From the IMG/VR virus record IMGVR_UViG_2565956762_000001, positions 1 to 39,559 of that record: a stretch of DNA of 39,559 nucleotides. The stretch is one strand, 5' to 3'. Positions 1,331-38,992 of the stretch are shown piece by piece. The DNA is from a virus. Taxonomy: Duplodnaviria; Heunggongvirae; Uroviricota; Caudoviricetes. Each line of letters starts with the position of its first letter. The stretch's first letter is position 1. The position numbers and the translations under genes were made by a program. The notes beneath the pieces were generated by a model. It did no database searches, had not been told where the DNA came from, and saw nothing but the letters and a program-made list of their open reading frames with translations.

Positions 1331-1345
1331 GCTTTTTTATACTAA
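1331..1345. other. attL core (B-O-P'); P' arm with Int arm-type sites follows to about 1420
   Basis: Core GCTTTTTTATACTAA; downstream P'-arm text (…caggtcactatcagtcaaaataaaatcatt…) matches what I recall of lambda attP P' arm. Confidence 0.9.
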
Positions 1346-1418
1346 GTTGGCATTATAAAAAAGCATTGCTTATCAATTTTTTGCAACTAACAGGTCACTA
1401 TCAGTCAAAATAAAATCA

Positions 1419-2489
1419 TTATTTGATTTCAATTTTGTCCCACTCCCTGCCTCTGTCATCACGATACTGTGATGCCATGGTGTCCGACTTATGCCCGAGA
1501 AGATGTTGAGCAAACTTATCGCTTATCTGCTTCTCATAGAGTCTTGCAGACAAACTGCGCAACTCGTGAAAGGTAGGCGGATCCCCTTCGAAGGAAAGAC
1601 CTGATGCTTTTCGTGCGCGCATAAAATACCTTGATACTGTGCCGGATGAAAGCGGTTCACGACGAGTAGATGCAATTATGGTTTCTCCGCCAAGAATCTC
1701 TTTGCATTTATCAAGTGTTTCCTTCATTGATATCCCGAGAGCATCAACATGCAATGTTGTTGGTATGGCAATTTTTACGCCTGTTTTGCTTTGCTCGACA
1801 TAAAGATATCCATCTACGATATCAGACCACTTCATTTCGCATAAATCACCAACTCGTTGCCCGGTAACAACAGCCAGTTCCATTGCAAGTCTGAGCCAAC
1901 ATGGTGATGATTCTGCTGCTTGATAAATTTTCAGGTATTCGTCAGCTGTAAGCCTTGATCTCCTTACCTCTGATTTTGCTGCGCGAGTGGCAGCGACCGG
2001 GTTTGTTGTTATATGGCCTTCAGCTATTGCCTCTCGGAATGCATCGCTCAGTGTTGATCTGATTAACTTGGCTGATGCCGCCTTGCCCTCGTCAATGTAT
2101 CCATTGAGCATTGCCGCAATTTCTTTTGTGGTTATGTTTTCAAGTGGAGCATCAGGCAGACCCCTCCTTATTGCTTTAATTTTGCTCATGTAATTTATGA
2201 ATGTCTTCTGCTTGATTCCTCTGCTGGCGAGGATTTTTTCGTAGCGATCAAGCCATGAATGTAACGTAACAGAATTATCACTGTTGATTCTCGCTGTCAG
2301 AGGCTTGTGTTTGTGTCCTGAAAATAACTCAATGTTGGCCTGTATAGCTTCAGTGATTGCTATCCTCCTGTCTCGGCCTAAACCAAACTCTTTACCCGTC
2401 CTTGGGTCCCTGTAGCAGTAATATCCATTGTTTCTTATATAAAGGTTAGGGGGTAAATCCCGGCGCTCATGACTTCGCCTTCTTCCCAT
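1419..2489 (-). CDS. int: Lambda-type tyrosine integrase Int
   Basis: 356-aa ORF beginning MGRRRSHERRDLPPNLYIRNNGYYCYRDP…; recognised as lambda Int; adjacent to attL. Confidence 0.97.
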   Translation of the reverse strand: MGRRRSHERRDLPPNLYIRNNGYYCYRDPRTGKEFGLGRDRRIAITEAIQANIELFSGHKHKPLTARINSDNSVTLHSWLDRYEKILASRGIKQKTFINYMSKIKAIRRGLPDAPLENITTKEIAAMLNGYIDEGKAASAKLIRSTLSDAFREAIAEGHITTNPVAATRAAKSEVRRSRLTADEYLKIYQAAESSPCWLRLAMELAVVTGQRVGDLCEMKWSDIVDGYLYVEQSKTGVKIAIPTTLHVDALGISMKETLDKCKEILGGETIIASTRREPLSSGTVSRYFMRARKASGLSFEGDPPTFHELRSLSARLYEKQISDKFAQHLLGHKSDTMASQYRDDRGREWDKIEIK

Positions 2490-2685
2490 TTCTGATCCTC
2501 TTCAAAAGGCTACCTGTTACTGGTCGATTTAAGTCAACCTTTACCGCTGATTCGTGGAACAGATACTCTCTTCCATCCTTAACCGGAGGAGGGAATATCC
2601 TGCACTCGCGTACCCATCGACGAACTGTTTCAAGGCTTCTTGGGCGTCGCTGGCGTGCGTTCCACTCCTGAAGTGTCAAGTACAT
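2467..2685 (-). CDS. xis: Excisionase Xis
   Basis: 72-aa ORF MYLTLQEWNARQRRPRSLETVRRWVRE… recognised as lambda Xis; its 3' end overlaps the int start by 23 nt. Confidence 0.95.
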   Translation of the reverse strand: MYLTLQEWNARQRRPRSLETVRRWVRECRIFPPPVKDGREYLFHESAVKVDLNRPVTGSLLKRIRNGKKAKS

Positions 2686-2790
2686 CGCAAAGTCTCCGCA
2701 ATTACACGCAAGAAAAGCCGCATTGATGCGGCAATGGTAGGTCTGGATATCTTGAGAAATGAACAGGCCTCATCGAGTGTGAGGCTGTGG

Positions 2791-3135
2791 TTAGTCCTTG
2801 CGTAGTTCGCTAATTCTTCTGTAAGTCTCTGGTGCTTTGTTTCCGTGTATCTTCATTTCAGACTTCAACAGAGCAACGAGGGAATCCCATTCGTTGAGGA
2901 TTCCTTTGAATGCCGGAACGTGCTTTGCAACCTTGTCGAATGAATCTCTGATTTCTGGAACCTGCTCAACAAGTGCAACGCATCGTCGGAAATCGGCTGC
3001 GTCATGTGGAGCGCCGAAGTGATGACCATAGATATTCTTTTTCAGTCCACATGCGATTGAGGCAAGAGTTGCGCTACTGATGCCAACATCGCCAGTCGAT
3101 TGCCATTTCAAAACCTTCATAGCCAAATCTGACAT
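2791..3135 (-). CDS. Hypothetical protein (114 aa), early-left accessory gene
   Basis: Intact ORF in operon orientation directly upstream of xis; no domain recognised. Confidence 0.55.
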   Translation of the reverse strand: MSDLAMKVLKWQSTGDVGISSATLASIACGLKKNIYGHHFGAPHDAADFRRCVALVEQVPEIRDSFDKVAKHVPAFKGILNEWDSLVALLKSEMKIHGNKAPETYRRISELRKD

Positions 3136-3174
3136 TTCTTGTCTCCATAAAACAAAACCCGCCGTAGCGAGTTC

Positions 3175-3204
3175 AGATAAAAGAAATCCCCGCGAGTGCG
3201 AGGA
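3175..3204 (-). terminator. Candidate intrinsic terminator (minus strand) between ASCH gene and 114-aa gene
   Basis: Minus-strand hairpin tcctcgc-actc-gcgggga (7 bp with one G·U) followed by a T-rich run. Confidence 0.3.
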
Positions 3205-3207
3205 TTG

Positions 3208-3492
3208 CTATTCAGTGCCGATATTCACCTTTATCGCGAATACCTTTACCGGTTTATCACCGAAGTGCGGATGTGTGATTGTCTTGATTTCATATCCGTC
3301 GTACGGGACGTCAATTCTACGGCTGGAATCTTCGCGCTTCGGATATCCCTTCGTGATAATCAGGCGGTCATACTCCCGGAACATGATTCGCTTATTCCAG
3401 TAGTCATTACACAAGCGATACTCTTCCGTTTTCTCTCCGCGAATCATGGCATCGAAGTATTCACCTTTGACGGCAAGTTGCAGGTTAGCCAC
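3208..3492 (-). CDS. ASCH-domain (PUA-like) protein
   Basis: 94-aa ORF; N-terminal …KGEYFDAMIRGEKTEEYR… resembles the ASCH motif. Confidence 0.65.
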   Translation of the reverse strand: MANLQLAVKGEYFDAMIRGEKTEEYRLCNDYWNKRIMFREYDRLIITKGYPKREDSSRRIDVPYDGYEIKTITHPHFGDKPVKVFAIKVNIGTE

Positions 3493-3772
3493 GACCTTCC
3501 TCCTTTGGCTTGTGAATTTGTATCGTCATGCCGCTTTGAGTGGTGACTACAATGACAGAACCAGGCTGAAGACTGTTAAGATTGAATGCTTCGTAAAACG
3601 AATCCAAGGCCAGCGCTTTTTTATTCTTTCGGTTCCACCAACGCCATCCCTTGCTACAGACTACACTGACAATCCACTGCCCACTCCTGTAAGCCATATA
3701 AAACCAGATGAGCAAAACCTGAAGAAATGCTATCCAGTCAATAATCGTATATTTCGCGAAGGAGTACATCAC
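3485..3772 (-). CDS. Hypothetical small protein with hydrophobic N-terminal segment (95 aa)
   Basis: ORF overlaps neighbours by a few nt on both sides; hydrophobic stretch IIDWIAFLQVLLIWFYMAY. Confidence 0.45.
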   Translation of the reverse strand: MMYSFAKYTIIDWIAFLQVLLIWFYMAYRSGQWIVSVVCSKGWRWWNRKNKKALALDSFYEAFNLNSLQPGSVIVVTTQSGMTIQIHKPKEEGRG

Positions 3773-4464
3773 TTCACCTCCTGCTGTGGTGCTGCTGGCA
3801 TTTCACGCCAGTGCGTAACTGAGTGCGGATCCGGATATTCGGTGCCATCATCCCAGCGATTGCCATTCCACATTGCAGACCACATCTCACCGTCTTCATA
3901 CATGACCATTACCGGAATTAACTTATCCGGCATTCGCTCACTACAGCTTATCCAACTATCCGGAGTTACCGGATAGTTGCCATTCACAAGGTCAGCTCGA
4001 ACATATAGCGTGTCATCATGGTGCTGATTGTGGCTGCACCACGTTAATTCGCTTAACTCGCCATCTTCTGGCCATACTCCAGCCGTTTGCAGCCAGATAT
4101 GGGCTGGCGCATCTTGGCAAGGTGTATTAACTGGCAACTTGCAAGTTTGGCTTACAGGTTCGGCTTCCAGTTCTGCTATGCGCTTTTTTGCTGTTTCCAG
4201 CTCGCCCAGCAGCGCCAAGACGGTAGCCGGATTGGCTGCGGCGATGAATTCAGCATTGGCCTGCTGTTCCATTTGGAAATCTTCATCGAAACCGCTTTCA
4301 GGATGCGCTCCTTCAATTCTGCAAATGGGAATATATCCAGCAGCCTCGCGATGAATTAGTGCATCATCACCATCAAATCGGCCCTCTCCATATTCGAGCG
4401 ACCACTCGCCACACGTTGCTTTTTCTGCCTTAGCACGCAGTGCCTGATAGTCAATCTTGCTCAC
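3769..4464 (-). CDS. Ead/Ea22-like protein with C-terminal DUF551-like region
   Basis: 231-aa ORF; central …NAEFIAAANPATVLALLGELE… and C-terminal …SVTHWREMPAAP… resemble Ead/Ea22 and DUF551 families. Confidence 0.65.
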   Translation of the reverse strand: MSKIDYQALRAKAEKATCGEWSLEYGEGRFDGDDALIHREAAGYIPICRIEGAHPESGFDEDFQMEQQANAEFIAAANPATVLALLGELETAKKRIAELEAEPVSQTCKLPVNTPCQDAPAHIWLQTAGVWPEDGELSELTWCSHNQHHDDTLYVRADLVNGNYPVTPDSWISCSERMPDKLIPVMVMYEDGEMWSAMWNGNRWDDGTEYPDPHSVTHWREMPAAPQQEVK

Positions 4465-4913
4465 TGGTTACCTCCTTTGCGAAGCTCTGCGGCGAACTCG
4501 TTAAGGGATATGTAGCAATCTCCAAATGTTAACGAACCGCTCGACTGCATATGCTCCATAGCCATCTCCACGCCCTGAGCCCGCACTTCGGCCACGAAAG
4601 CGTCGGTGGCTGGGGTTTCGATATCGTTAATTTCAGGAAGAATCTCTTCCCATGTGGCGATATCGCCATTCAAATGCCATCCGGCAATTCCACTGGAGTT
4701 ATCCGCAACACTGCGAACGGCTTCAATAGTTTCATGCATTGCCGCATTCTCCGCCTCCAGCGCCGCGCACTTGGCCTCCGCTTCAGAAAATTTACGCACC
4801 AGATATTCAGCGTTTGTTTCGTTAACCTTTAAATCACTTGGGATGCATTTACCTTTCAGAAAACCATCCATCTCAATTAGTGACATTTGTTTCATTTCTT
4901 CCCACTCCGCCAC
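4461..4913 (-). CDS. Hypothetical protein (150 aa; true start may be an internal ATG)
   Basis: ORF in operon orientation; the ORF-track start is a GTG; acidic, helix-rich composition. Confidence 0.5.
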
Positions 4914-5056
4914 ATCGCATTCAGATATTTGTTGTCATTAACAGAACCGAAACTCTTTCTCTTAAGCAATTCCTCTCTCGATGGCATTGGCTTTACGCGT
5001 TGGCGAATAATCATTTCTGCCGGAAGAATGCCGGGATTGTATGCAAGTCCTCTCAT
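4892..5056 (-). CDS. Hypothetical small protein (54 aa), below the ORF-track cutoff
   Basis: Hand-translated [54 protein letters not shown]; its ATG overlaps the stop of the upstream gene (ATGA). Confidence 0.3.
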
Positions 5057-5334
5057 GATTTACTCTCCACGAACTGGTCAATAGCCATGCTAAGTGACAC
5101 ACCTAAAGTCTCGATATGTTGCTGAATATCCTGTAGCGTCTGCGCCTGAGATAACAGGATTTCACGGTTGCATAATTCTTTAACCAGATGCTCAAACTTG
5201 CTGTAATAACCGATACGGCTTAGTGTTTCTTTCCCTGCATTCTCGCCTTCTTTGATAATTCCTCTTTCGCTAAGAATCAGATCGTGTTTGGTTCCGGTAA
5301 TAACGTATTTTCCGAGGTCGATGTTTAGCTTCAT
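5053..5334 (-). CDS. Hypothetical protein (93 aa)
   Basis: ORF in operon orientation; no domain recognised. Confidence 0.55.
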
Positions 5335-5350: not shown

Positions 5351-5665
5351 TTAATTTATTCGTATGCCTGCTCTTTCTTCATCGAGTTTTTTTAGCTTGT
5401 ATCGCATAGCTCTTACTGAATAAATTGAGCGGCAGGTTGCAATTGCTATTTCTTCTGCGGAGAACTTACCGAAAAGTGATACTTCGGCTCTTGTCCATCG
5501 TCTTCCACGAAGTCGGCTAACAATGTCAGCGCCAATCCTTGTTGCTTTCGCCATTACTGCTTTTTCAGTCCTTTCCAGTTTTTCTGCGATAACTTCAACT
5601 GGCATTGTTGTCGCTACTTCGCGCAAGAAATCGACTTCCCATTTCTCCCATGGAGTCTTTTTCAT
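5351..5665 (-). CDS. Hypothetical protein (104 aa), possible tandem helix-turn-helix DNA-binding repeats
   Basis: Two internally similar segments (W..E..L….E.A..L.RT/kA…RiG); inference only. Confidence 0.5.
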   Translation of the reverse strand: MKKTPWEKWEVDFLREVATTMPVEVIAEKLERTEKAVMAKATRIGADIVSRLRGRRWTRAEVSLFGKFSAEEIAIATCRSIYSVRAMRYKLKKLDEERAGIRIN

Positions 5666-5676
5666 AGGCGATACCG

Positions 5677-6165
5677 TTATTTGATAAGAAGTGAAGGTTT
5701 CCCAACTTTGAGTTGAGCGCCGGGGATATTTATTCCTGCTTTTAGTTGGTGTTTGATTGCCAGTTTGTCGGCTTTTATTGTTGTTTCAAACTCAACGTAT
5801 TCAGGAGGAAGGGCGCTTGAGTCGATGATTTCTACAGTTTCTGACGGTTTGCGGATTGTTACCTGGTGAATACCTGCTCGAATATTTTTCTTGCCAACCA
5901 TTTCAAGCGATGACGCTATATATGATTTGATGCTGTCAATCTTATTTTGAATTACTGCGGCTCGCTCATTCAGTGACTTTGCCTCTTCCTTGAGGCGTTC
6001 AGCATAACCAGATTCATTTTTAATAATGGCAAGAAGTTGCTCTATTTTATCGGTAAATTCTCCTTCCATGCCTTCTATTGTGTCAGCAATCATCTCTGGC
6101 TCTAAATCTGAATCCATCAGCTTTGCGTATTCATTGGCTATTTCATACAGTTTGCTCACTGGCAA
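5677..6165 (-). CDS. Siphovirus Gp157-family protein
   Basis: 162-aa ORF immediately downstream of RecT; C-terminal …LKAGINIPGAQLKVGKPSLLIK fits my recollection of the Gp157 family. Confidence 0.6.
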   Translation of the reverse strand: MPVSKLYEIANEYAKLMDSDLEPEMIADTIEGMEGEFTDKIEQLLAIIKNESGYAERLKEEAKSLNERAAVIQNKIDSIKSYIASSLEMVGKKNIRAGIHQVTIRKPSETVEIIDSSALPPEYVEFETTIKADKLAIKHQLKAGINIPGAQLKVGKPSLLIK

Positions 6166-7045
6166 CCTCCAGTTTCGCTTTGCATTCTGCGTAAATGGCT
6201 TGTACGTTCTGCTGCAATTTCATTCCAGATGTCAGGCGATATGCTTCTGCAAAATATCGCTTCAAATCATCCATGTTTTCAGCCTGGGCCATTTCATCAC
6301 AAAGAAGTTGTGCTTTATCCATTATTTCCTGCTGGCGTTTCCGTTCATCTTCGCGGATATCTTCCTCTGATTTGTGCGGCATAACTGGTTCCTGATGCAT
6401 ACCTTCATCTTCGTTAAGCAGGTGAATGGCATTATCCAGTCGCTGGGCTTTAGGCCAGTATTTGCTGGCGCGTTTAACTATTGTTTTACGTGCCATCTCT
6501 TCCCAGAATGTTTTCCACGGTCCATTCTTTGCCTTGCTCGTTGCTTCAACAGCTTTAATTTCTGCCAGACTCATTTCTTCAGTCAGGTAGTCACCATCTG
6601 CTGTTTTAACCGTGCAATAACCACCAACAATAGAGCCTCGCTCACCAAATGCGTTGTATTTGTGGGTTGGTGCTGAATCAAGGCCGTTTGATTCATAGGT
6701 GTCGTTTGAGTACACCAGTTTGCATTGCCCCCACTTAATTGAGCCTGTCGATTGCGCAAGATGAAGTAATCCCATATAGCTGATATCAAGGCAAACCATG
6801 CCGTCGCGCGGAACCAGATAAGCCAGTTTGCTGGCCGGGTTTAAGGTGATGCCGATCGCTGCAACATTGATGATGGCGTTCTGTGCGCTGGTTGGATTTG
6901 CCAGTGCTGTTTTAGCCAGGTAATCGTTTTTCTGGAAATACTGAATTGCAAACTGGCTTTCCTTAGCCCATGTCACCGTCTGTTCAGTCAATGCTCCGCA
7001 GAATAACTGCTCTTGCTGTTTAACGAATTCAACGATATTGCTCAT
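6143..7045 (-). CDS. recT: RecT-family single-strand annealing recombinase
   Basis: 300-aa ORF; sequence recognised as RecT-like; position equivalent to lambda bet / P22 erf. Confidence 0.8.
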   Translation of the reverse strand: MSNIVEFVKQQEQLFCGALTEQTVTWAKESQFAIQYFQKNDYLAKTALANPTSAQNAIINVAAIGITLNPASKLAYLVPRDGMVCLDISYMGLLHLAQSTGSIKWGQCKLVYSNDTYESNGLDSAPTHKYNAFGERGSIVGGYCTVKTADGDYLTEEMSLAEIKAVEATSKAKNGPWKTFWEEMARKTIVKRASKYWPKAQRLDNAIHLLNEDEGMHQEPVMPHKSEEDIREDERKRQQEIMDKAQLLCDEMAQAENMDDLKRYFAEAYRLTSGMKLQQNVQAIYAECKAKLEVASEQTV

Positions 7046-7353
7046 GCAGCTTCTCCATAAATATGTCTGCGTTTGAATATTGCGAAGGCATATTCAGCCT
7101 TAACTCTTTCGGTTATTGCATCCCAGAACCATTCAGCGGCTTTTTCCTGATAGTTACAGTCATCATCTTCCAGCCAGTCGATAGCGTCCTTAGTGTGTTC
7201 ATCTGGTTTATATGAGCGAAGCATTTCGCTTATTGGGTCGCAACGTTTGCAGAGGCGATCAACTTCACTGTTGATTCGTTCGTAATCTTCATCAGTAAAA
7301 CTTGCGATTATTTGCGATATTTCACGCTTATCATTCAGAGTCAGAATCATCAT
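7042..7353 (-). CDS. Hypothetical protein (103 aa) at the gam/abc position upstream of recT
   Basis: ORF overlaps the recT start by 4 nt; acidic; function inferred from position only. Confidence 0.5.
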   Translation of the reverse strand: MMILTLNDKREISQIIASFTDEDYERINSEVDRLCKRCDPISEMLRSYKPDEHTKDAIDWLEDDDCNYQEKAAEWFWDAITERVKAEYAFAIFKRRHIYGEAA

Positions 7354-7438
7354 CTTTCTCCTGTTCTTTGTGCTGATTGAGCATTTCTTTCATATGACGA
7401 ATGAATTCTTCGTCTGACCAGTTATCTGTAAAACTCAT
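7331..7438 (-). CDS. Hypothetical acidic micro-protein (35 aa) translationally coupled to cIII
   Basis: Hand-translated MSFTDNWSDEEFIRHMKEMLNQHKEQEKDDDSDSE; its ATG overlaps the cIII stop (ATGA). Sits where lambda has kil. Confidence 0.25.
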   Translation of the reverse strand: MSFTDNWSDEEFIRHMKEMLNQHKEQEKDDDSDSE

Positions 7439-7605
7439 GGACGGCCTTGTTGTTTCAAAATATCCCAAAGCTTTTCGAGCAAGCTTTTCATTCTTGGTTG
7501 TTTAAAGTCTGCTCCGGTTAAAATGTTTTTTCGTGAATGCTGTACCGATAAAATCGGGTTGAAAGGGCGAACCGATGCCGCCCCTGCAATAGCGAACTGT
7601 TGCAT
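7435..7605 (-). CDS. cIII: CIII-like regulator (FtsH inhibitor family)
   Basis: 56-aa product MQQFAIAGAAS…LLEKLWDILKQQGRP resembles lambda CIII (MQYAIAG…; …IDILNQPG). GGAG RBS about 6 nt upstream. The ORF-track 91-aa version starts upstream and spans a terminator hairpin, so I use the internal Met. Confidence 0.65.
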   Translation of the reverse strand: MQQFAIAGAASVRPFNPILSVQHSRKNILTGADFKQPRMKSLLEKLWDILKQQGRP

Positions 7606-7665
7606 AGGATGCTCCTTCTGTTTGATTGCATAACGAAAACGCCTCGAGTGAAGCGTTATTGGTAT

Positions 7666-7695
7666 GCATATAAAAAGGCCCTCACACTGGAGGGC
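7666..7695 (-). terminator. tL-type intrinsic terminator upstream of cIII (minus strand)
   Basis: Hairpin gccctc-(6 nt)-gagggc followed on the minus strand by CTTTTTAT. Confidence 0.55.
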
Positions 7696-7788
7696 AAAGA
7701 AGAGTTCCAATAATCAGAACAAGTCGGCTCCTGTTTAGTTACGAGCGACATTGCTCACATAGCAGACTCGTAAATCTGCTATAGGCGC

Positions 7789-7950
7789 TTATTCGCATCG
7801 CATGACAACATCAAATTTTTCGAGATTACTTTGTCGCAACAATCCTTCTTCTACGCGGTCAGCTTTTCTATAATTATCAAATTCGAAATGTTTAATTACT
7901 TCTTTTGTTTCTCGCTCTATAACTTCAACAATGTATTTCTTATTCATCAT
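7789..7950 (-). CDS. Hypothetical small protein (53 aa), below the ORF-track cutoff
   Basis: Hand-translated MMNKKYIVEVIERETKEVIKHFEFDNYRKADRVEEGLLRQSNLEKFDVVMRCE; ATG overlaps the upstream stop (ATGA). Confidence 0.3.
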   Translation of the reverse strand: MMNKKYIVEVIERETKEVIKHFEFDNYRKADRVEEGLLRQSNLEKFDVVMRCE

Positions 7951-8249
7951 TCTTCCCCAAGAGCTTTTCTGATTGCTGCAAGACCTTTATTAACAGCTCC
8001 ATACCATTCTGGATATGTTGTCTTTGTTCTATTTTTGGTTTGCTTAAGTAATAACTGAAGTGCTTCGAGAAGGTCAGGTGCTGCCGCTATTAGATTGGCA
8101 TCTTCAATGCATTGAACTTCCTCACAGATTGCAATATACGAACGCCAGCCTGCGCCATTTTCAAGTGAGGCTGCCTGGATGATTTTAATCTCATCGCCAT
8201 CCATCATTATTTCCCACTTACCTTCAGTACCTTTAAATTCCATGTTCAC
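7947..8249 (-). CDS. Hypothetical protein (100 aa), pL operon
   Basis: ORF in operon orientation between N and cIII. Confidence 0.5.
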   Translation of the reverse strand: MNMEFKGTEGKWEIMMDGDEIKIIQAASLENGAGWRSYIAICEEVQCIEDANLIAAAPDLLEALQLLLKQTKNRTKTTYPEWYGAVNKGLAAIRKALGEE

Positions 8250-8282
8250 CTCTGTTGTTTATGTCAAAAATAAAGGCCACCA

Positions 8283-8534
8283 TCAGGCAGCCTTGTTGTA
8301 AATGTTGCAGGTATCAAGTAAGTAATTAGATGGAGCGCCATAAATTATGAATTCATCGTTTGTCGGGTCCATCTCCATCTCTTGGCCTATTGCCATTCTT
8401 GCGTCAGTGTCATCAGCGGCGAAGCATAAAACAGCCCACGCACCCATTGTTTTAAAAAGAACTGCAATTGGCTGTGGTTTTACTGAATTTGCGTTAGCGC
8501 GAAAATCACAAATCGCACTTTCATGAAACTCCAT
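8283..8534 (-). CDS. Hypothetical protein (83 aa), pL operon
   Basis: ORF directly downstream of N. Confidence 0.45.
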   Translation of the reverse strand: MEFHESAICDFRANANSVKPQPIAVLFKTMGAWAVLCFAADDTDARMAIGQEMEMDPTNDEFIIYGAPSNYLLDTCNIYNKAA

Positions 8535-8542: not shown

Positions 8543-8842
8543 TCAAATAAGTGGTTTACTTCCTAATTTCATTTTCTGGCGACCAACACAAGTCACACCC
8601 ATTTCGCTGCGTGGCTTGCGGTAGTAAATACCGTTCTGTTTACGATCGACTTCTTCTGCCTTCTTGCAGCGAAGGCTTCCGAGTGATGCTGCTTTGTCTG
8701 CTCTGACGCAACCAGAGAGCTTTAGCGCAATTTTTCGCGCCAGTCGCTGCTCTTGCATTGCCTGTTCACGTTGAGCCTGTCTGCGTGCTCTGCGGCGATT
8801 TCTGGCGTTATCGTCAGCCAGATATGTAATGACTACTGTCAT
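8543..8842 (-). CDS. N: N-like transcription antiterminator
   Basis: 99-aa ORF; arginine-rich N-terminus (…NARNRRRARRQAQREQ…); C-terminus …GVTCVGRQKMKLGSKPLI resembles the lambda N C-terminus (…ITCSGRQKIKGKSIPLI); located immediately downstream of nutL. Confidence 0.8.
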   Translation of the reverse strand: MTVVITYLADDNARNRRRARRQAQREQAMQEQRLARKIALKLSGCVRADKAASLGSLRCKKAEEVDRKQNGIYYRKPRSEMGVTCVGRQKMKLGSKPLI

Positions 8843-9036: not shown

Positions 9037-9119
9037 AATTTAAGATCTCTTTAATTAATGGTCAAGAGTATTTTTGAAGAAAACTTAAATTTTCTTTCGT
9101 AACTTAAGTTTGGCTTTGA
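9037..9119 (-). promoter_or_regulatory. pL promoter with OL operators
   Basis: Minus-strand TTGACC (9060..9065) – 17 bp – TAAATT (9037..9042); operator-like 18-mers ATTTAAGATCTCTTTAAT (9038..9055), ACTTAAATTTTCTTTCGT (9083..9100), ACTTAAGTTTGGCTTTGA (9102..9119). Confidence 0.55.
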
Positions 9120-9130
9120 TTTTTAAAGGA

Positions 9131-9156
9131 AATAAAAAAAAGGGGCGAATGCCCCC
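9131..9156 (-). terminator. Intrinsic terminator immediately after the repressor gene (minus strand)
   Basis: GC stem ggggc-gaat-gcccc followed on the minus strand by a 9–10 nt T run; abuts the cI stop codon. Confidence 0.6.
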
Positions 9157-9807
9157 TTATGGAAGGTTTGCTAGTTTTGCATCGACAACTACGCCGATGA
9201 TTTTGCAGTTTCCGTTGATCTCGATCATCGGATATTGTGGGTTAAGTGGTTTTAGAAACTTCCTGCCTGCATCAATAACTAACTTCTTGAAAGTTGCCTC
9301 GTTTTCTCCTTCGAGCTTTGCAACTACCAGTTTCCCGTTACGCGGCTCTACTTCAGGATCGACGAGTATTATCATTCCTTCAGGGATACTGAGACCGGCC
9401 GGAGCCGTCATTGAGTCTCCCTTCACGTCCAACCAAAACGAATCTTCTGAACAGTCTACGGTTGTATCGTACCAGTTATCTATTGCACGCTTATGATATG
9501 GTTCTACAGCTTCCATCCAGCATCCTGCGCTCACCCAGCTAATCAGAGGGTATGACCCTCTTGGATCATGCCTACTGTGATAGGCAATGTTTGAAAGACT
9601 TTCCTCTCCTTTCATCAGATAGTCAGGGGAACACTTCAACGCATTAGCCAGGGCGAGAAGATTCTCTCCATTTGGCTCTGTCTCAGAGCGTTCCCACTGA
9701 GATATGGCAACATTAGACACGCCGACCATCTTTCCAAGTGCGGCCTGCCTGATCTTGAGTTCTTTTCTCCGAGCGCGAATGCGCTCTCCCATCAATTGAG
9801 TTTTCAT
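9157..9807 (-). CDS. cI: Prophage repressor, P22 C2 / phage-21 cI type (HTH + S24 LexA-like autopeptidase domain)
   Basis: 216-aa ORF MKTQLMGERIRARRKELKIRQAALGKMVGVSNVAISQWERSETEPNG… recognised as P22 C2-like; GDSM and VVAKL catalytic motifs present. Confidence 0.93.
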   Translation of the reverse strand: MKTQLMGERIRARRKELKIRQAALGKMVGVSNVAISQWERSETEPNGENLLALANALKCSPDYLMKGEESLSNIAYHSRHDPRGSYPLISWVSAGCWMEAVEPYHKRAIDNWYDTTVDCSEDSFWLDVKGDSMTAPAGLSIPEGMIILVDPEVEPRNGKLVVAKLEGENEATFKKLVIDAGRKFLKPLNPQYPMIEINGNCKIIGVVVDAKLANLP

Positions 9808-9873
9808 AGTTAAGACATCTTAAATAAACTTGACTTAAGATTCCTTTAGTGGATAATTTAAGTGTTCTTTAAT
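9808..9873. promoter_or_regulatory. OR3-OR2-OR1 operators with divergent PRM/PR
   Basis: Three 18-bp half-symmetric sites AGTTAAGACATCTTAAAT (9808..9825), ACTTAAGATTCCTTTAGT (9833..9850), ATTTAAGTGTTCTTTAAT (9856..9873); PR −35 TTGACT (9830..9835), 16-bp spacer, −10 GATAAT (9852..9857). Confidence 0.8.
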
Positions 9874-9887
9874 TTCGGAGCGAGTCT

Positions 9888-10073
9888 ATGTACAAGAAAG
9901 ATGTTATCGACCACTTCGGAACCCAGCGTGCTGTAGCTAAAGCGTTAGGCATTAGCGACGCAGCAGTCTCTCAGTGGAAGGAAGTCATCCCAGAGAAAGA
10001 CGCCTATCGACTGGAAGTCGTTACAGCTGGCGCCCTGAAGTATCAAGAAAGCGCTTACCGCAAAGCGGCATAA
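9888..10073 (+). CDS. cro: Cro (P22-type)
   Basis: 61-aa ORF MYKKDVIDHFGTQRAVAKALGISDAAVSQWKEV… recognised as P22 Cro-like; first gene downstream of PR. Confidence 0.93.
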   Translation: MYKKDVIDHFGTQRAVAKALGISDAAVSQWKEVIPEKDAYRLEVVTAGALKYQESAYRKAA

Positions 10074-10181: not shown

Positions 10182-10460
10182 ATGCAACTTACAAGTACTC
10201 GCAAGAAAGCGAATGCAATTACAAGCAACATCCTGAATCGAATTGCTGTACGTGGTCAGCGAAAGGTTGCCGACGCGTTAGGGATTAATGAATCGCAAAT
10301 TTCGAGATGGAAAGACAGCTTCATCCCAAAAATGGGAATGCTTCTGGCTGTTCTTGAATGGGGTGTTGAAGACGAGGAGTTGGCGGAACTGGCTAAGAAA
10401 GTAGCCAGAATGCTGACAAAAGAAAAAGCCCCGAAGAACGGCGAATTCTTCGAGGCCTGA
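10182..10460 (+). CDS. cII: CII-like transcriptional activator (P22 C1 type)
   Basis: Product from internal Met MQLTSTRKKANAITSNILNRIAVRGQRKVADALGINESQISRWK…; AAGGA RBS upstream; the upstream ORF extension covers nutR and is not coding. Confidence 0.8.
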   Translation: MQLTSTRKKANAITSNILNRIAVRGQRKVADALGINESQISRWKDSFIPKMGMLLAVLEWGVEDEELAELAKKVARMLTKEKAPKNGEFFEA

Positions 10461-10494: not shown

Positions 10495-11139
10495 ATGACA
10501 TACGAAAATGACAAATTCCAGGTTCTGAAGAGCATGAAGGTGCCAGATGATTTTAAATCAAATGGCTTTGTTTATGTGCTTTCGAATGAGTGCATGCCAG
10601 GAATTTATAAGATTGGGATGACTAAGCATTCACCAGAAGTTAGGGCTAAAGAAATTTCAGCCTCTACTGGCGTTCCTAAGCCATTTAAGGTGATAGCAGC
10701 CTTTCATTCAAATAATCCCGCATCAGATGAAAAACTCATTCATAAAGCCTTTGCAAAAGAGAGGCTTAGTGATAATCGAGAGTTTTTCAAGCTTGAAGAT
10801 AATGATCTTTCTGAATCTCTAAATGAAATAAGGGCGCTGGTTGGCCCTGAAAGAAATGGCGAGACGGCAGAATACGCAATTTACGACTCATTCATTTCTT
10901 TTCGCCATGAAAATGAGCTTGATCTTAATGAGGAGCTTATAGAGCAAGGTCTGGGTAGTGTAGTTGGTCATCTTCCTGCGGTGAAAAATTTCCTTATTCG
11001 CGCCGGAATTGATTACGCGAAGCAACTGATAAGCAAATATAACTCATCGATAGTTATTAATACAGATGGCAGTGTGGTGATGGTTAAGTCTCTTGAAGCC
11101 CAATGCTTTGATGCGGAGGTTGGAAATGAGCCTGGCTGA
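10495..11139 (+). CDS. T5orf172-domain (GIY-YIG-like) protein inserted between cII and O
   Basis: 214-aa ORF with AGGAG RBS; N-terminal …GFVYVLSNECMPGIYKIGMTKHSPEVRAKEIS…REFFKL… fits the T5orf172/GIY-YIG-like pattern; 3' end overlaps the O start. Confidence 0.7.
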   Translation: MTYENDKFQVLKSMKVPDDFKSNGFVYVLSNECMPGIYKIGMTKHSPEVRAKEISASTGVPKPFKVIAAFHSNNPASDEKLIHKAFAKERLSDNREFFKLEDNDLSESLNEIRALVGPERNGETAEYAIYDSFISFRHENELDLNEELIEQGLGSVVGHLPAVKNFLIRAGIDYAKQLISKYNSSIVINTDGSVVMVKSLEAQCFDAEVGNEPG

Positions 11140-11968
11140 AGTATTTTACCTGCCGAAGAGTGAACCTGTTGAACAGGAGCGAAGAGTGGCTGATATCGAT
11201 GATGGTTACACCAGATTCGCTAACGAGCTGCTGGAAGCTATCGCAAGTGCCGATTTAACCGCTCGCCAGTTGAAAGTTATGCTGGCCTACGTCCGGAAAA
11301 CATATGGATTCAATAAGAAAACAGATCGAATAGCCGATGAGCAAATTGCTCAGTTAACAGGACTGTCAAGGCAGAATGTTAACAAGGCTAAAAAAGAACT
11401 GATTTCAATGAATTGCCTGTTTATGGATGGAAATCAAATCGGTGTAAATAGGGAGGTATCTGCGTGGCAATTCAGCAAGTGTCTCCAAGTTAGCAACTTT
11501 GTCTCGAAGTTAGAGACAAAAAGTGTCTCCAAATTAGAGACACTCAATGTCTCGAAGTTAGAGACACACAAAAGACATTCTTTAAAGACAAAAGAAAATA
11601 TTAATAAACCCCCTATATCCCCCAAAAAAGTTTCTCAGAAGTTCGACCCGCTAGAAACAGAGTTGCCTGATTGGTTATCAGCAGAAATATGGTTGTCGTG
11701 GGTTACCTATCGCAAGGAGATAGGTAAGTCGATCAAGTCTAAGCAAAGCGTCACTCAGGCTATCAACGTTCTAAGCAGAAGTCTGGAGAAGGGATATACA
11801 CCTGAAGAAATTATAAACCAGAGCATCGCCAGTGGTTGGCAGGGGATTTTTGAACCAAAGACTCCAAAGGGGAAATCTCAACCGAGGCCGCAGCAGCGAG
11901 CTATGCAGGAAAACTTTGCCGCCAAAGATTACGGGCAAACTGAAATGCCTTCATGGGCGCAGGAGTGA
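11126..11968 (+). CDS. O: Replication initiator, lambda O-like (contains ori iterons)
   Basis: Product from MSLAEVFYLPKSEPVEQ… with GGAGG RBS; iteron array inside the gene; followed immediately by the helicase-loader gene. Confidence 0.8.
   Translation: MSLAEVFYLPKSEPVEQERRVADIDDGYTRFANELLEAIASADLTARQLKVMLAYVRKTYGFNKKTDRIADEQIAQLTGLSRQNVNKAKKELISMNCLFMDGNQIGVNREVSAWQFSKCLQVSNFVSKLETKSVSKLETLNVSKLETHKRHSLKTKENINKPPISPKKVSQKFDPLETELPDWLSAEIWLSWVTYRKEIGKSIKSKQSVTQAINVLSRSLEKGYTPEEIINQSIASGWQGIFEPKTPKGKSQPRPQQRAMQENFAAKDYGQTEMPSWAQE
11481..11612. repeat. Replication origin: four iterons plus adjacent AT-rich segment
   Basis: Four ~17-bp dyad-symmetric repeats (gtctccaagttagcaac, gtctcgaagttagagac, gtctccaaattagagac, gtctcgaagttagagac) spaced about 23 bp, then an A/T-rich stretch. 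Confidence 0.75.
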
Positions 11969-11970
11969 AT

Positions 11971-12864
11971 ATGAATACGACAAATGGTTACAATCTGGCA
12001 CTGCAAAGGCAACTTGTAGACTCAAAAATCAATGACATTTCTGATCTGAAACAGAAACTTGAGTTTAGCAAAATTGGATCAGCATCAGATGGAATGTCAG
12101 TTACCAGCACAGTGGAAGAGTGCGAGAAACACGGTAAATATACTTCCTATGAGAAATATCTGACCATCTCAGGAAAAAGAATTACTTCAAGTAAATCTGA
12201 GTGCCCACAGTGCCTTGAGGAGAAAATTCGTAAGAAAGAGATTGAACGTGAGCAGGCAGAACAAAGAGCAAGACAATCAAAAATTGAATATTTGTTGAAT
12301 TCTCTCAATATTCCAGAGAGGTTCAAAAACTGCACTCTTCAGAATTATGAGCCTGTTAACGATGATGCAAAGCGAGTTCTTAAGGTATGCCAGGCATATG
12401 CCAGTAAGTGGCCTGAACGCCTTCAAAAAGGTGGCGGACTGGTCATGTGTGGTAAGCCTGGAACTGGAAAGAACCACCTTGCACTGGCTATCGCTAGGCA
12501 CGCCATTATCGAGCATCAAAGCTCTGTGATATTTACCACTGCGTTGAAAATTGCCAGAGAGTACAAATCAACATGGTCTAAGGCCGCAACCAGAACTGAA
12601 GAAGAAGTCATTAGGCAATTTACGCATCCTGACTTGTTAATAATCGATGAGGTTGGCGTGCAGTTCGGCAGTGATGCTGAAAAGCTAATCATGTTCGAAA
12701 TTATCAACACCAGATATGAATACATGAAGCCAACAATCCTGATTAGTAATCAGAGCAAAGATGAACTTTCGGCATTCATTGGTGAGCGTGTTATTGACAG
12801 GATGAATGATGGCGGCGGGTGCACCCTTGCGTTTACATGGGATAGTTACAGGAGCAGAACGTGA
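11971..12864 (+). CDS. DnaC/IstB-like AAA+ helicase loader (replication protein)
   Basis: Walker A GKPGTGKNHLA and Walker B LLIIDEVG; ATG 3 nt after the O stop with AGGAG RBS. Confidence 0.85.
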   Translation: MNTTNGYNLALQRQLVDSKINDISDLKQKLEFSKIGSASDGMSVTSTVEECEKHGKYTSYEKYLTISGKRITSSKSECPQCLEEKIRKKEIEREQAEQRARQSKIEYLLNSLNIPERFKNCTLQNYEPVNDDAKRVLKVCQAYASKWPERLQKGGGLVMCGKPGTGKNHLALAIARHAIIEHQSSVIFTTALKIAREYKSTWSKAATRTEEEVIRQFTHPDLLIIDEVGVQFGSDAEKLIMFEIINTRYEYMKPTILISNQSKDELSAFIGERVIDRMNDGGGCTLAFTWDSYRSRT

Positions 12865-13151
12865 CTGGAAAAGAAATCATCCTGGAATATCTGAAAACTC
12901 ATGAACAATTCTCCCCGCATGAATTAGCACTGATCACCGGAATACCAAATAACAGAATCGCTCAAGCAGCAAGGCATATGGTGAAACAAGGACATTTGAG
13001 TGTTGTTGAGCGTAAGTGGAAGACGGTTATTTATGCAAAACGCAAAGTGAAGAAGGAGCCAATTAAAAGAAATCCAGATGGTACGGGGTGGGGATGTGCA
13101 AATCCAATGACGGCGTTTATTAATAGGGCGCTTATGGAGGTAAGGCAATGA
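12861..13151 (+). CDS. Hypothetical protein (96 aa), possible winged-helix
   Basis: GTG start overlapping the upstream stop (GTGA). Confidence 0.5.
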   Translation: MTGKEIILEYLKTHEQFSPHELALITGIPNNRIAQAARHMVKQGHLSVVERKWKTVIYAKRKVKKEPIKRNPDGTGWGCANPMTAFINRALMEVRQ

Positions 13152-13223: not shown

Positions 13224-13550
13224 GTGACTGACTGGCAAATTCCAATCATCATTCTTTCCGGAGCTTCGCTGGTTGCTGGCTTTATCCTGCTGAAAAAGCA
13301 TAAAGACCGTGATCAAAAAGTCGAAGTTCTCTATGGGTATCCAGCGAACAGCACAACATGGCTGACCATTTACCACTACCGAAAATCAGGCCGCTGGGTA
13401 TTCGAATGGGATGATCTGTTCGCTGAAAAGCGACCAAAGTCATGGGGAGACATCAGCGAATGCATGATGTTTGAAGAAAGAAAATCCGGCGCAACCCGAG
13501 AAGAATTTAACGAAGCGTGGGCGCGATTAAGTGAGAGAGGGTATTTGTGA
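13224..13550 (+). CDS. Hypothetical protein with N-terminal transmembrane helix (108 aa)
   Basis: GGGAGAGGGA RBS then GTG start; hydrophobic N-terminus IIILSGASLVAGFILL. Confidence 0.5.
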   Translation: MTDWQIPIIILSGASLVAGFILLKKHKDRDQKVEVLYGYPANSTTWLTIYHYRKSGRWVFEWDDLFAEKRPKSWGDISECMMFEERKSGATREEFNEAWARLSERGYL

Positions 13551-13747: not shown

Positions 13748-13758
13748 CGGGGATTGAT

Positions 13759-23001: not shown

Positions 23002-23003
23002 AC

Positions 23004-26028: not shown

Positions 26029-26039
26029 GGAAAAGATAA

Positions 26040-36936: not shown

Positions 36937-36983
36937 ATTGCATAGCAAAGGCGCTCATTGTACACTATCGCAAATTCAAAATC

Positions 36984-38102
36984 ATGGTGGTTAACATGAG
37001 TGCCTTTTTCCTTTTTATTGCAGTAATTGGTGTAATTATAGATTTAGCATCTCCGGTGACAGTTTATGGTGTACAACTATTCCTATTTCCATTCGCATGC
37101 CTTTTTTTATACGCAAAAAGTGTAAGTAAAATGACGTATCAGTCATTATTATTTATAATAATGGTGGTATCTATTGTTATAATAAGTTCATTTATCCAGG
37201 TTTATATATCACAGCATAATGAGATATTATTATCACAGACGCTTAAAGTAATAATTTGGGTGGTGTCGTCATACTTGTTATATGTTGGATGTAAGGGAGT
37301 GGATAAAGATACTTTAGAGAGATCAATAAATGCAGCGCTAGTAGTTTTCATACTCTCTTTATTTATTCAAGTAGTATCGAAACTTTTATTTGGTTCTATT
37401 GTTGACTACTCTATGCTAATTGGTGGTGAACCATCAAGAAATATGATGACTGGAGTTGGGTTTAGGCCAACAGGGCTAACTGCAGAACCAAGTGTATATT
37501 GCGGAATAACAGCGTGGTTAATTACGTTACGATATGCAATTAATAAAAAGATTGATTATTTGTTTTTACTGTCATGCGTTTCAATGACGTTTACATTGTC
37601 ATTTGTTGGAATATTTCTTTGCTTTCTCATGCTATGTGTTGGTATGATGAGAATTAAGATGATTATCCCAGTGATAGCAATATTTGTGATTGGGTATCTT
37701 TCTGTTTTAAATATTGTAAATGACAGGATTGTTTTATTTCTATCTGGGGCTGATGGTAGCAATAATATAAAGATAGAGACCATTCTTGATTTTATTGGAA
37801 ATCAAAATTTATATATTTTTGGTTATGGTTTGATTGGTAAGTCAGAATCTGCGCCATCATTTTATGAGTCGTTATATGATATGACTATATTTGGAAACTT
37901 TATTACAATATTTGGTCTTCCATTTGGAGTATTATGCATAGTATTATATTGTGTTTTTATAATTAAAATTAAAATAACAAAAAGGGCAAAGCTAATGATG
38001 TTGCTATCATCTTTAAAAATTAGCCTGCCGTTTTTTGCTGTGTTTTATATGGCTATTGCTATGATATGTGCAATTTCAAATAAGAACAAAGCGTTAACGT
38101 AA
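36984..38102 (+). CDS. Polytopic inner-membrane protein, candidate O-antigen polymerase/ligase-like (Wzy/WaaL-like) conversion protein
   Basis: 372-aa ORF, very hydrophobic with around 10 predicted TM segments; visibly AT-rich DNA and atypical codon usage; sits between tailspike and attR. Confidence 0.65.
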   Translation: MVVNMSAFFLFIAVIGVIIDLASPVTVYGVQLFLFPFACLFLYAKSVSKMTYQSLLFIIMVVSIVIISSFIQVYISQHNEILLSQTLKVIIWVVSSYLLYVGCKGVDKDTLERSINAALVVFILSLFIQVVSKLLFGSIVDYSMLIGGEPSRNMMTGVGFRPTGLTAEPSVYCGITAWLITLRYAINKKIDYLFLLSCVSMTFTLSFVGIFLCFLMLCVGMMRIKMIIPVIAIFVIGYLSVLNIVNDRIVLFLSGADGSNNIKIETILDFIGNQNLYIFGYGLIGKSESAPSFYESLYDMTIFGNFITIFGLPFGVLCIVLYCVFIIKIKITKRAKLMMLLSSLKISLPFFAVFYMAIAMICAISNKNKALT

Positions 38103-38402
38103 CAACTTGCACATAATAACATCTCTTTTTTTAGTTTCTGGTGATTGTATTGTTATACTATAATCACCAGAATAAAACTCAGTTAAAGTGAATTTTTCTT
38201 TATCAATAGATATATAATCAAGAGAACGAGCCTCGTTAAAAAATTCTTTTTCAAGGCTAAATTCTACATCATCTAGATGCACTTTGGACGCATTTGATGT
38301 GTTAACTTTAACAAGATGAGAACCACATATTATTTCATTTATCTTTGCGATTGATGAATTACTAACCATAAAGGTAAGTATAAAAAACAAGTATTTAAAC
38401 AT
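38094..38402 (-). CDS. Small exported protein (102 aa) with N-terminal signal peptide
   Basis: MFKYLFFILTFMVSNSSIA… signal-peptide-like N-terminus; AT-rich; convergent with and overlapping the 3' end of the membrane-protein gene. Confidence 0.5.
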   Translation of the reverse strand: MFKYLFFILTFMVSNSSIAKINEIICGSHLVKVNTSNASKVHLDDVEFSLEKEFFNEARSLDYISIDKEKFTLTEFYSGDYSITIQSPETKKRDVIMCKLLR

Positions 38403-38788
38403 ATATCACCATCTTTGAAAAATATTCTACAAATAGTAGCATGAACATCATGCTAATTAAAGAAAGATTGCAAAACTATTTTCCATTTGTCAAGCACTTA
38501 GGTGATAAATGTATGGGGTTGTGATGTTTATATTTTAGTAAGTTCGTGATCATATAATTATTTACATGTAATGATATGTACCACATCAGGTGGTAGTATT
38601 TGTATCCACTTGAGGCAAAACTGAGAAACGCAAAGCTTTGTACTGGATTACAAGGCTTTATGTCATTCGATAGTTAAGGTGGGTCACTCTACCTTCTCAT
38701 CAATCCAGTCCGCCCACCACTGCATCATTTCTCTGCGCTTATCGAGATACTGAGCATGGTTGTAAATTCAGCTAACCCAGTGTGTTGA

Positions 38789-38831
38789 CAAAAAATTAGC
38801 GCAAGAAGACAAAAAAATCACCTTGCGCTAA
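38789..38831 (-). terminator. sib/tI-like retroregulation hairpin in the attP P arm (minus strand)
   Basis: 10-bp perfect stem ttagcgcaag-(16 nt)-cttgcgctaa followed on the minus strand by a T run; lies about 150–190 nt from the core on the side that is downstream of int in the circular phage. Confidence 0.45.
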
Positions 38832-38977
38832 TGCTCTGTTACAGGTCACTAATACCATCTAAGTGGTTGATTCATAGTGACTGGATATGTTGTGTTTTGT
38901 AGCATTATGCAGTCTATTTTTTAGACTAAATATATTATAACGCATTGATATTAATGGTTTTTAGTGTTTCACGTTCA

Positions 38978-38992
38978 GCTTTTTTATACTAA
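38978..38992. other. attR core (P-O-B'); P arm occupies roughly 38740..38977
   Basis: Core GCTTTTTTATACTAA followed by host CTTGAGCG; upstream text (…ctgttacaggtcactaataccatctaagt…) resembles the lambda attP P arm. Confidence 0.9.

Follow-up and report, generated by a model that had tools for sequence, protein, structure and literature searches.

The window analysed here, a 39,559-nucleotide stretch covering positions 1 to 39,559 of the virus record IMGVR_UViG_2565956762_000001, very probably carries a complete temperate P22-like podovirus (Lederbergvirus-type, Sf6 virion subtype) that uses a lambda-type integrase and occupies the lambda attB. We compared the window with phages lambda, lambda imm21, P22, Sf6, HK620 and Gally by blastn and, open reading frame (ORF) by ORF, by blastp, and we screened 50,697 phage records and 5,426 complete E. 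coli genomes for a collinear record. The lambda common core GCTTTTTTATACTAA is found exactly at 1331-1345 and 38978-38992 and nowhere else in the window (chance expectation 0); both cores are the limits of the finding, and the core-to-core span is 37,647 bp of phage DNA. The left flank carries ybhC (1-1284, minus strand) and the right flank ybhB (from 39083, minus strand), the latter flank being 97.7% identical to that of E. coli JNE131328, and the matching E. coli genomes are annotated with ybhC, ybhB and the adjoining bioA. The insertion is at the classical lambda attB (gal-bio), between ybhC and ybhB of an E. coli-type chromosome, in the orientation of the lambda prophage: attL, int, xis, early genes, late genes, attR. 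Judged by its gene content, the prophage is apparently intact, 37.6 kb long and of the P22/Sf6 short-tailed type. A mosaic of this kind at the lambda attachment site had been proposed in a sequence-only reading of this DNA, and both the cores, starting at 1331 and 38978, and the Sf6 virion genes bear it out.

Integration module and virion genes

The integration module flanks the prophage on both sides and is composed as follows.

1331..1345, no strand: attL core, exact match to GCTTTTTTATACTAA
1346..1470, no strand: lambda P' arm with the H' site and the P'1-P'3 Int arm sites (alignment with lambda 27739-27860)
1419..2489, minus strand: int, lambda-type tyrosine integrase, 356 amino acids (aa) (blastp)
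2467..2685, minus strand: xis, excisionase, 72 aa
38687..38767, minus strand: fossil 3' end of an IntS-type integrase gene, last 27 codons and stop (tblastn)
38780..38977, no strand: lambda-type P arm, with P1, H1 and P2 kept and the X/F/H2 part diverged (alignments)
38978..38992, no strand: attR core, exact match

From the left core through the P' arm, int and xis (1331-2716), the DNA is 97.9% identical to lambda. Int shares 98.6-99% of its residues with lambda Int, 99.4% with the integrases of JEP4 (MT740315) and Huey (PQ850609), which are Lederbergvirus isolates, and 74% with that of Gally. The near-identity to lambda that had been read for Int and Xis is confirmed at 99% aa identity for each. 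The same claim for the att arms is right for the P' arm, which shows only two mismatches to lambda 27739-27860, both at unspecified positions around H', with P'1-3 identical, but not for the P arm, which is 86% identical to lambda, 90% to Gally and 94% to Huey, with a similar value for JEP4 (range of 90-94% for JEP4 and Huey). Within the P arm, P1 is identical to lambda and P2 has a single change in its flank, whereas H1 and H' remain compatible with the IHF consensus. Many substitutions relative to lambda, common to Gally, Huey and JEP4, lie in the X1-X2/F/H2 stretch.

The packaging and virion genes occupy most of the right half of the prophage.

20085..20508, plus strand: DUF2560 gene and hkbN-like gene, conserved P22-like genes upstream of terminase (blastp, Pfam)
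20572..21071, minus strand: antisense two-gene insert in the late operon, DUF6953 (79 aa) and DUF2158 (71 aa) (Pfam; phrog_10782, phrog_3261)
21065..21592, plus strand: small terminase (TerS), Terminase_2 family, 175 aa (PF03592, E 3.5e-39)
21589..34723, plus strand: Sf6-type large terminase (TerL), portal, scaffold, coat, gp4, gp10, gp26 needle with knob, gp14, gp7, gp20 and gp16 (blastn, blastp)

Positions 21521-35226 match Sf6 in one 13.7-kb alignment at 97.1% DNA identity. The virion proteins are full length, in order and 98-100% identical to those of Sf6, with 100% for TerL, scaffold, coat and gp4, 99% for portal and gp10, and 98% for the knobbed needle, gp7, gp20 and gp16. Since the portal is 99-100% identical to the portals of Sf6 and Gally and only 32% identical to that of P22, the head is of Sf6 type and not of P22 type; the scaffold also shares about 32% of its residues with P22 and the coat has no detectable similarity to it, while gp10 and gp14 are 93% identical to their P22 counterparts. 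Thus, of the P22/Sf6-like virion of the sequence-only reading, the Sf6 part stands and the P22 part does not extend to the head. As in Sf6, none of immI, sieA and mnt is present between gene 16 and the tailspike gene. By analogy with Sf6, a podovirus morphology with a T=7 head and a short tail is predicted.

The packaging genes had been assigned to the same P22/Sf6 type, which fails at the small terminase. TerS is swapped relative to Sf6, HK620 and Gally, its resemblance to Sf6/HK620 TerS being confined to the last 36 residues, which presumably bind TerL. The small-terminase DNA matches phages NM-3 and Kapi1, and the joint to Sf6-type DNA falls inside the gene, at about 21516. The gene map shows lambdoid early-gene order together with pac-type terminase genes, and we infer by analogy a headful packaging mode whose pac specificity would be set by the swapped TerS. 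Just upstream, the DUF6953/DUF2158 pair is absent from the six reference phages and looks like a moron-type insert.

The core genes match the reference lengths, no frameshifts were seen, and no IS elements (insertion sequences) or transposases were matched in DNA searches of the window or in the ORFs scanned. That the element could be a defective (cryptic) prophage, complete in appearance and unable to excise or to form particles, seems improbable to us, since its essential genes are full length and 96-100% identical to genes of the plaque-forming Sf6, HK620, Gally and lambda, without visible frameshifts or IS elements. Two features could speak for it, namely the antisense insert at 20572-21071 inside the late operon and the Xis/Fis/IHF-H2 region of the P arm, which has diverged from lambda, but the same diverged P arm is carried by plaque-forming JEP4 and Huey and by the virion-producing prophage Gally. 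ARAGORN found no tRNA genes, and an Rfam scan of the whole window at gathering thresholds gave no match.

The integrase scar

The intS fossil is 100% identical to residues 359-385 of the IntS of a prophage in E. coli O166:H15 (tblastn), and the lambda P-arm homology starts at 38780, 12 bp from it. Judged by sequence, the fossil is the scar of an integrase-module replacement and marks one joint to the base. A layout of the Sf6/HK620 type (tailspike, cargo, intS, attP) was interrupted within intS and fused to a lambda-type attP-int-xis module, which replaced the Sf6/HK620-type IntS integrase and left its last 27 codons behind. The arrangement of fossil and P arm is also found in Gally, JEP4 and Huey, and in E. 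coli JNE131328 the fossil is annotated as a partial pseudogene. Of the 5,426 E. coli genomes, 597 cover the junction of fossil, P arm, core and ybhB to 80% or more, while the species-representative genomes gave no hit in an exact search for the joint of cargo and P arm. Its presence in these genomes and in Gally, JEP4 and Huey indicates that the joint is old and widespread rather than a recent event in this strain.

These data bear on another explanation, in which the lambda-like segments were gained recently in the host lineage, an Sf6-like phage having entered a cell that carried a lambda prophage at attB and crossed with it. Such a cross would account for the close identity to lambda of int, xis and the P' arm (97.9%) and of ninF-Q (97.7%), but we regard it as very improbable because Int is closer to JEP4 and Huey than to lambda (99.4% against 98.6%), the P arm is closer to Huey and Gally than to lambda, Gally, JEP4, Huey and the 597 genomes all have the junction of fossil and P arm, and Sf6 already has lambda-like ninG-ninI and S-R segments at 97-98% identity. 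Taken together, the affinities of Int and of the P arm, the shared junction and the Sf6 segments indicate that the joints are old and have been circulating within the podophage lineage.

Mosaic structure and classification

The share of the prophage covered by each reference is 66% for Gally, 52% for Sf6, 41% for HK620, 38% for Huey, 37% for JEP4, 25% for P22, 20% for lambda imm21 and 16% for lambda. Collinearity of the whole element with one described phage is hardly tenable, despite the same gene order and the identical immunity region in Gally, given that even Gally reaches only 66% and that 80% coverage of either half is not attained by any of the 50,697 phage records or 5,426 complete E. 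coli genomes. The claim of a mosaic, which had been made before this nucleotide comparison was run, therefore stands.

Exchange of whole modules is directly visible at the 13.4-kb early block, at the right end and at the integrase scar. The early block is 99.7% identical to a siphovirus-type prophage, and positions 32695-38767 are 99.79% identical to the P22-like prophage of E. coli O166:H15 JNE21-009, which lies at argW with an IntS integrase and has head genes of another type. Accessory genes are found where the closest reference switches (xis/ea, cIII/N, cII/O, ren/nin, lysis/packaging and tailspike/att), with two small ORFs between cIII and N and others between ren and ninB, and the idea that the unusual cargo would sit at module junctions proved broadly right. 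The genome was most likely assembled by homologous and illegitimate module exchange within the lambdoid gene pool. The lambda-, 21/P22- and Sf6-like patchwork is real but ordinary, being the documented way in which lambdoid phages are built: modules for integration, immunity, replication, lysis and the virion are freely exchanged among them, also across the divide between long and short tails. In this respect the element mostly confirms what is known, and it offers a clean teaching example, with an early block common to a siphovirus-type prophage and a scar that marks one joint to the base.

The element is probably a further P22-like, Lederbergvirus-type phage and a new species. The genus guideline of the International Committee on Taxonomy of Viruses asks for at least 70% whole-genome nucleotide similarity, and a rough BLAST-based estimate (not VIRIDIC) gives about 62% to Gally and 51% to Sf6, which leaves the element below the guideline with respect to any Lederbergvirus. 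This value weighs against our reading of a complete Lederbergvirus-type phage, as do the difference from lambda in the X/F/H2 part of the P arm, which bears on the efficiency of excision, and the fact that morphology and every regulatory step are deduced from homologs. As for the guideline, accepted Lederbergvirus members are themselves reported to fall below the similarity threshold through mosaicism (bioRxiv 10.64898/2026.05.19.726188).

Left early genes and immunity region

2791..5334, minus strand: ea-type accessory genes, phrog_1229, phrog_625, DUF4752, Ead/Ea22 with DUF551, EaE-like, DUF2737-like and DUF5405 (profile matches)
5351..7353, minus strand: recombination module, Gally gp26-like protein (104 aa), Sipho_Gp157 protein, RecT recombinase and a 103-aa ORF (profiles and blastp)
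7331..8534, minus strand: small ORFs of the kil/cIII region and two accessory ORFs of 100 aa (phrog_1273) and 83 aa (blastp, PHROG)
8543..8842, minus strand: N antiterminator, 99 aa, with nutL upstream at about 8850-9040
9040..9156, no strand: OL operators and PL, P22/21 type (aligned with P22, imm21 and Gally OL)
9157..9807, minus strand: prophage repressor, 216 aa, phage 21 cI/P22 C2 type (blastp)
9808..9887, no strand: OR1-3, PR and PRM (alignment)
9888..10073, plus strand: cro, 61 aa (blastp)
10182..10460, plus strand: CII/C1-type activator (blastp)

The immunity region had been read as P22/21-type in its repressor, Cro, CII and operators, and the comparison agrees. The repressor is identical to Gally C2 (100%) and shares 97% of its residues with phage 21 cI, 92% with P22 C2 and 35% with lambda cI; Cro is 100% identical to that of Gally, 97% to that of phage 21 and 95% to that of P22; OR differs from P22 and imm21 by 2-3 mismatches in 96 nt. 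As judged from these similarities, the immunity is of the phage 21/P22 type (repressor, Cro, tripartite operators), and homoimmunity is predicted. For the CII homolog, the identity is 98% to HK620 cII and 86% to P22 C1. N shares 97% of its residues with Gally N, 98% over 64 aa with that of HK620 and 69% with that of phage 21, and the nutL region is 98% identical to that of HK620. With N and nutL of HK620 type, there are thus further joints inside this immunity block.

To the left of N, positions 7797-8264 are covered by none of the six reference phages. The recombination module is 87-99% identical to Gally at the protein level and is neither lambda Red nor P22 Erf; its RecT matches TIGR00616/NF007351, and the Sipho_Gp157 match has an E value of 1e-37. 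In the ea-type block, the closest reference alternates among Gally, Sf6 and HK620.

Replication, nin region, late antiterminator and lysis

10495..11139, plus strand: T5orf172/MUG113 (GIY-YIG-like) accessory gene between cII and O (Pfam PF13455/PF10544)
11126..13151, plus strand: replication module, O-like initiator, DnaC/IstB-type helicase loader and Ren-like protein (Phage_rep_O, IstB_IS21)
13224..16613, plus strand: nin region, three small ORFs, NinB (HK620 type), NinE, NinX, NinF, NinG, NinH and NinI (blastp)
16610..17233, plus strand: Q late antiterminator (blastp)
17234..17789, plus strand: PR'-qut-tR' leader, its terminator part of P22/Gally type rather than lambda type, without tRNA genes
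17790..19007, plus strand: lysis cassette, S holin and R endolysin (lambda type) and Rz/Rz1 spanin (P22 type) (blastp)
19352..19837, plus strand: second T5orf172/GIY-YIG-like accessory gene (Pfam; phrog_4284)

The replication module is 99% identical in DNA to those of CurroJimenez_Bas106 and mEpX1, and its O-like initiator shares merely 48% of its residues with lambda O over 111 aa.

For the genes from nin to lysis, the lambda-like character that had been claimed is only partly borne out. Positions 15021-17333 (ninF-G-H-I-Q) are 97.7% identical to lambda DNA, and NinG (99%), NinH (100%) and NinI (96%) are indeed close to lambda at the protein level, but NinB shares only 37% of its residues with lambda NinB and is of the HK620/Gally type (96%), NinX is P22-like, and ninC and ninD are not present in the nin region according to the gene-by-gene comparison. 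Q is identical to lambda Q over 207 of 207 residues, as it is to Gally Q; however, it is also 98% identical to P22 gp23, and since lambda Q and P22 gp23 are themselves 98% identical, Q is not a marker of lambda versus P22 origin. The lambda type is confirmed for S (99% aa) and R (98% aa), with 93% DNA identity over 17449-18818, and not for the spanin: Rz is 89% identical to that of P22 and 57% to that of lambda.

The two T5orf172 genes lie at joints, one between cII and O and the other between lysis and packaging. Among the candidate defence profiles of PADLOC, the product of the first (10495-11139) is matched by PDC-S57 (E 6e-29) and by PD-Lambda-1 in its C-terminal domain, and this gene may serve in prophage defence or encode a nuclease of the homing type. 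It is absent from mEpX1, although mEpX1 has the same replication genes. The second (19352-19837) is 98% identical in DNA to Salmonella phages epsilon34 and g341c. In the PADLOC search only the T5orf172 domains were matched, and the right-end cargo was without match.

Right-end cassette

34888..36936, plus strand: tailspike, 682 aa, with a P22-type head-binding domain, a receptor-binding middle and a C-terminal intramolecular chaperone domain (Pfam, blast, PDB matches)
36984..38102, plus strand: low-GC (31%) gene for a polytopic membrane protein, a probable Wzy-like O-antigen polymerase
38094..38402, minus strand: orphan ORF of 102 aa with a hydrophobic, signal-peptide-like N-terminus, convergent with the Wzy-like gene

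The tailspike is composite. Its head-binding domain matches PF09008 (E 1e-66) and, in the PDB, the N-termini of the Sf6 and P22 tailspikes; it is 95% identical to HK620 at the N-terminus and 75% identical to the P22 head-binding domain. For the middle part, the only DNA similarity (69-77%) is to genes for tail proteins or tail fibres in unrelated phages, which are mostly Kuttervirus (PhaxI, SS3, phage 38; 71-77% for the Kuttervirus tail proteins), and the receptor-binding domain is new among Lederbergvirus records. Residues 529-678 or so (36400-36936) match the intramolecular chaperones 7y5s (E 2e-11), 4uw8 (2e-6), 3gud (3.5e-6) and 3gw6 (1e-4), the last three belonging to the T5 L-shaped fibre (4uw8), phi29 gp12 (3gud) and the K1F endosialidase (3gw6) and matching residues 551-662 or so; the Pfam peptidase S74 model did not match the tailspike at E 0.01. 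The stretch TTSDESMKE resembles what we take to be the Ser...Lys autocleavage motif, making autocleavage putative. To our knowledge, the tailspikes of P22, Sf6 and HK620 have no such chaperone domain. By analogy, the tailspike is expected to cleave O-antigen.

The gene downstream of the tailspike encodes an all-helical membrane protein of 372 aa with a WaaL/Wzy-type fold, and the likelier role that we see for it, with some reserve, is that of a Wzy-like polymerase used for lysogenic conversion. Its relatives are rare (only 13 related clusters among 5.8 billion). Two of them, at 31-34% identity, are embedded among glycosyltransferases, next to Wzx, one in a polysaccharide cluster from a metagenome and the other in an Acinetobacter capsule-type locus, the latter in the order Wzx, GT2, GT4, homolog, GT4, GT4, ItrA, GalU, Ugd (GT, glycosyltransferase family). 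In both clusters the homolog is the sole candidate for the repeat-unit polymerase, as judged in Acinetobacter by Pfam scans of ORFs of at least 150 aa. A relative in S. bongori, named O-antigen polymerase in UniRef, lies in an IS-rich island adjoining an Acyl_transf_3 gene. What counts against a polymerase is that no sequence-family match backs the role, which is drawn from the fold and from the context of these 31-34% identical relatives: the product has no match in Pfam (including Wzy_C), PHROG or NCBIfam and no PDB sequence match, and the Wzx/glycosyltransferase context holds for the distant relatives and not for the phage copy itself.

It is rather unlikely, but a serious alternative, that the gene encodes instead a ligase of the WaaL type or a different membrane protein, for instance a superinfection-exclusion factor. 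The ligase WaaL is indeed the best structural match, with no Pfam Wzy_C match and no similarity to HK620 hkcF on the sequence side; however, no Wzy chain was among the fold-search matches, and Wzy and WaaL are thought to share this fold. The two clusters in which the relatives stand beside Wzx and glycosyltransferases are otherwise without a Wzy candidate, and together with the UniRef name of the S. bongori homolog this argues for the polymerase. As a Wzy-like polymerase, the product would alter the surface polysaccharide of the lysogen, by analogy with other phage-borne systems. A direct comparison of the gene with HK620 hkcF showed no similarity.

The 102-aa ORF has no family match in any profile library scanned. 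It is inherited together with the Wzy-like gene, at 99-100% identity, in three E. coli genomes. The possibility that it is a relative of the ORF following the S. bongori homolog was rejected, the two being unrelated. A scan of 34700-39100 for promoter and terminator consensus sites found them no more frequent than in shuffled sequence, and is thus uninformative on cargo expression.

An identical cassette is present in three complete genomes, one of which is E. coli O166:H15 JNE21-009; another, E7476, we take to be O166 as well. Two of the three cassette genomes being of O166 type, the receptor may be the O166 antigen. Tentatively, and with more doubt than for the polymerase itself, the 6-kb cassette (a tailspike with a new receptor-binding domain, a self-cleaving chaperone, a Wzy-like protein and an orphan secreted protein) might be an undescribed serotype-conversion unit that moves between prophages with different integrases, at the lambda attB here and at argW in two O166-type strains, the 102-aa protein possibly acting as a silencer of the host polymerase. 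Predictions of phage host range, and of how the O-antigen varies among O166-type E. coli and their relatives, could benefit from this pairing of tailspike and probable O-antigen polymerase.

In E. coli JNE131328 (locus 3221-5921), an Sf6-like prophage at the same attB has gtrABC-type glucosylation genes between the tailspike gene and the intS scar. There, gtrABC takes the place of the Wzy-like gene, indicating that the slot is an exchangeable serotype-conversion locus.

Predicted life cycle

In the proposed course, a LexA-like repressor of the phage 21/P22 type would hold OR and OL until SOS-triggered cleavage releases them. The HK620-type N would then act at the nut sites and open the early operons, Int and Xis would excise the prophage at the lambda att sites, and the O-like initiator with the DnaC-type loader would replicate the genome. 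Q would antiterminate the late operon, after which the swapped TerS and the Sf6 TerL would package DNA by headfuls into an Sf6-type capsid fitted with a gp4/gp10/gp26 tail and six tailspikes, and S, R and Rz/Rz1 would lyse the cell. In the lysogen, the cargo may convert the cell surface.

Comparison with known phages

The closest relative is Gally (OV696608), a Lederbergvirus prophage of E. coli LF82. It has the same gene order, the same Q and an intS fossil beside the P arm; its immunity region is 99.4% identical in DNA, with repressor and Cro identical at the protein level, its recombination genes are 87-99% identical and its head and tail-machine genes about 97% identical. Gally differs from the element in its HK022-type core and in its Int, in its DnaB-type helicase replication genes, in nin content, small terminase and tailspike, and in an mnt-containing region upstream of the tailspike gene that is absent here. 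It is integrated between torS and torT and is a podovirus by electron microscopy (PMC9928086).

Sf6 (NC_005344) shares the 97.1% identical 13.7 kb, which runs from TerL through gene 16 to the tailspike N-terminus and includes the knobbed needle. The segments ninG-ninI and S-R are common to both as well, and in both a gap of 165 bp without immI separates gene 16 from the tailspike gene. Unlike the element, Sf6 integrates at argW by means of IntS and has 434-like immunity, Erf recombination and a DnaB-type helicase; its Q is of the phage 21 type and comes with tRNAs, its small terminase is a different one, its tailspike is an endorhamnosidase, and its cargo is the oac acetylase. With P22 (NC_002371) the element shares the immunity (C2 92%, Cro 95%, OR), gp23/Q (98%), Rz (89%) and the overall plan; unlike P22, it is without immI, sieA, gtrABC and Erf, and the P22 integrase is different. 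P22 integrates at thrW. With lambda (NC_001416) it shares the att core, P' arm, Int, Xis, NinG/H/I, Q, S and R at 93-98% DNA identity and the gal-bio orientation, and unlike lambda it has no lambda head or tail genes, Red, O/P, rex or Rz.

A podophage at the lambda site is not new, because JEP4, Huey, phage phiHS3 and several complete genomes provide precedents. JEP4 and Huey have the exact lambda core, in addition to the Int and P arm described above, and the JEP4 immunity region is 99% identical to that of the element; they differ by CUS-3-type head genes (portal about 64% DNA identity), tailspikes and cargo. Several complete genomes have Sf6-like virion genes that run into the ybhB flank. 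Phage-borne O-antigen polymerase systems are also known, with Wzy-beta/Iap of Pseudomonas D3 and that of Salmonella epsilon15. Like these and the hkcF slot of HK620, the element places a polytopic membrane protein between the tailspike gene and att of a temperate phage; unlike them, its gene has no hkcF similarity and the neighbouring 102-aa ORF is an orphan. The P22-like phage phiHS3 was reported to integrate upstream of ybhC (bioRxiv 10.64898/2026.05.19.726188), and the plaques of Huey on an E. coli K-12 whose O-antigen had been restored are turbid, which points to lysogeny (PMC11990801); both studies stress the high mosaicism of the group.

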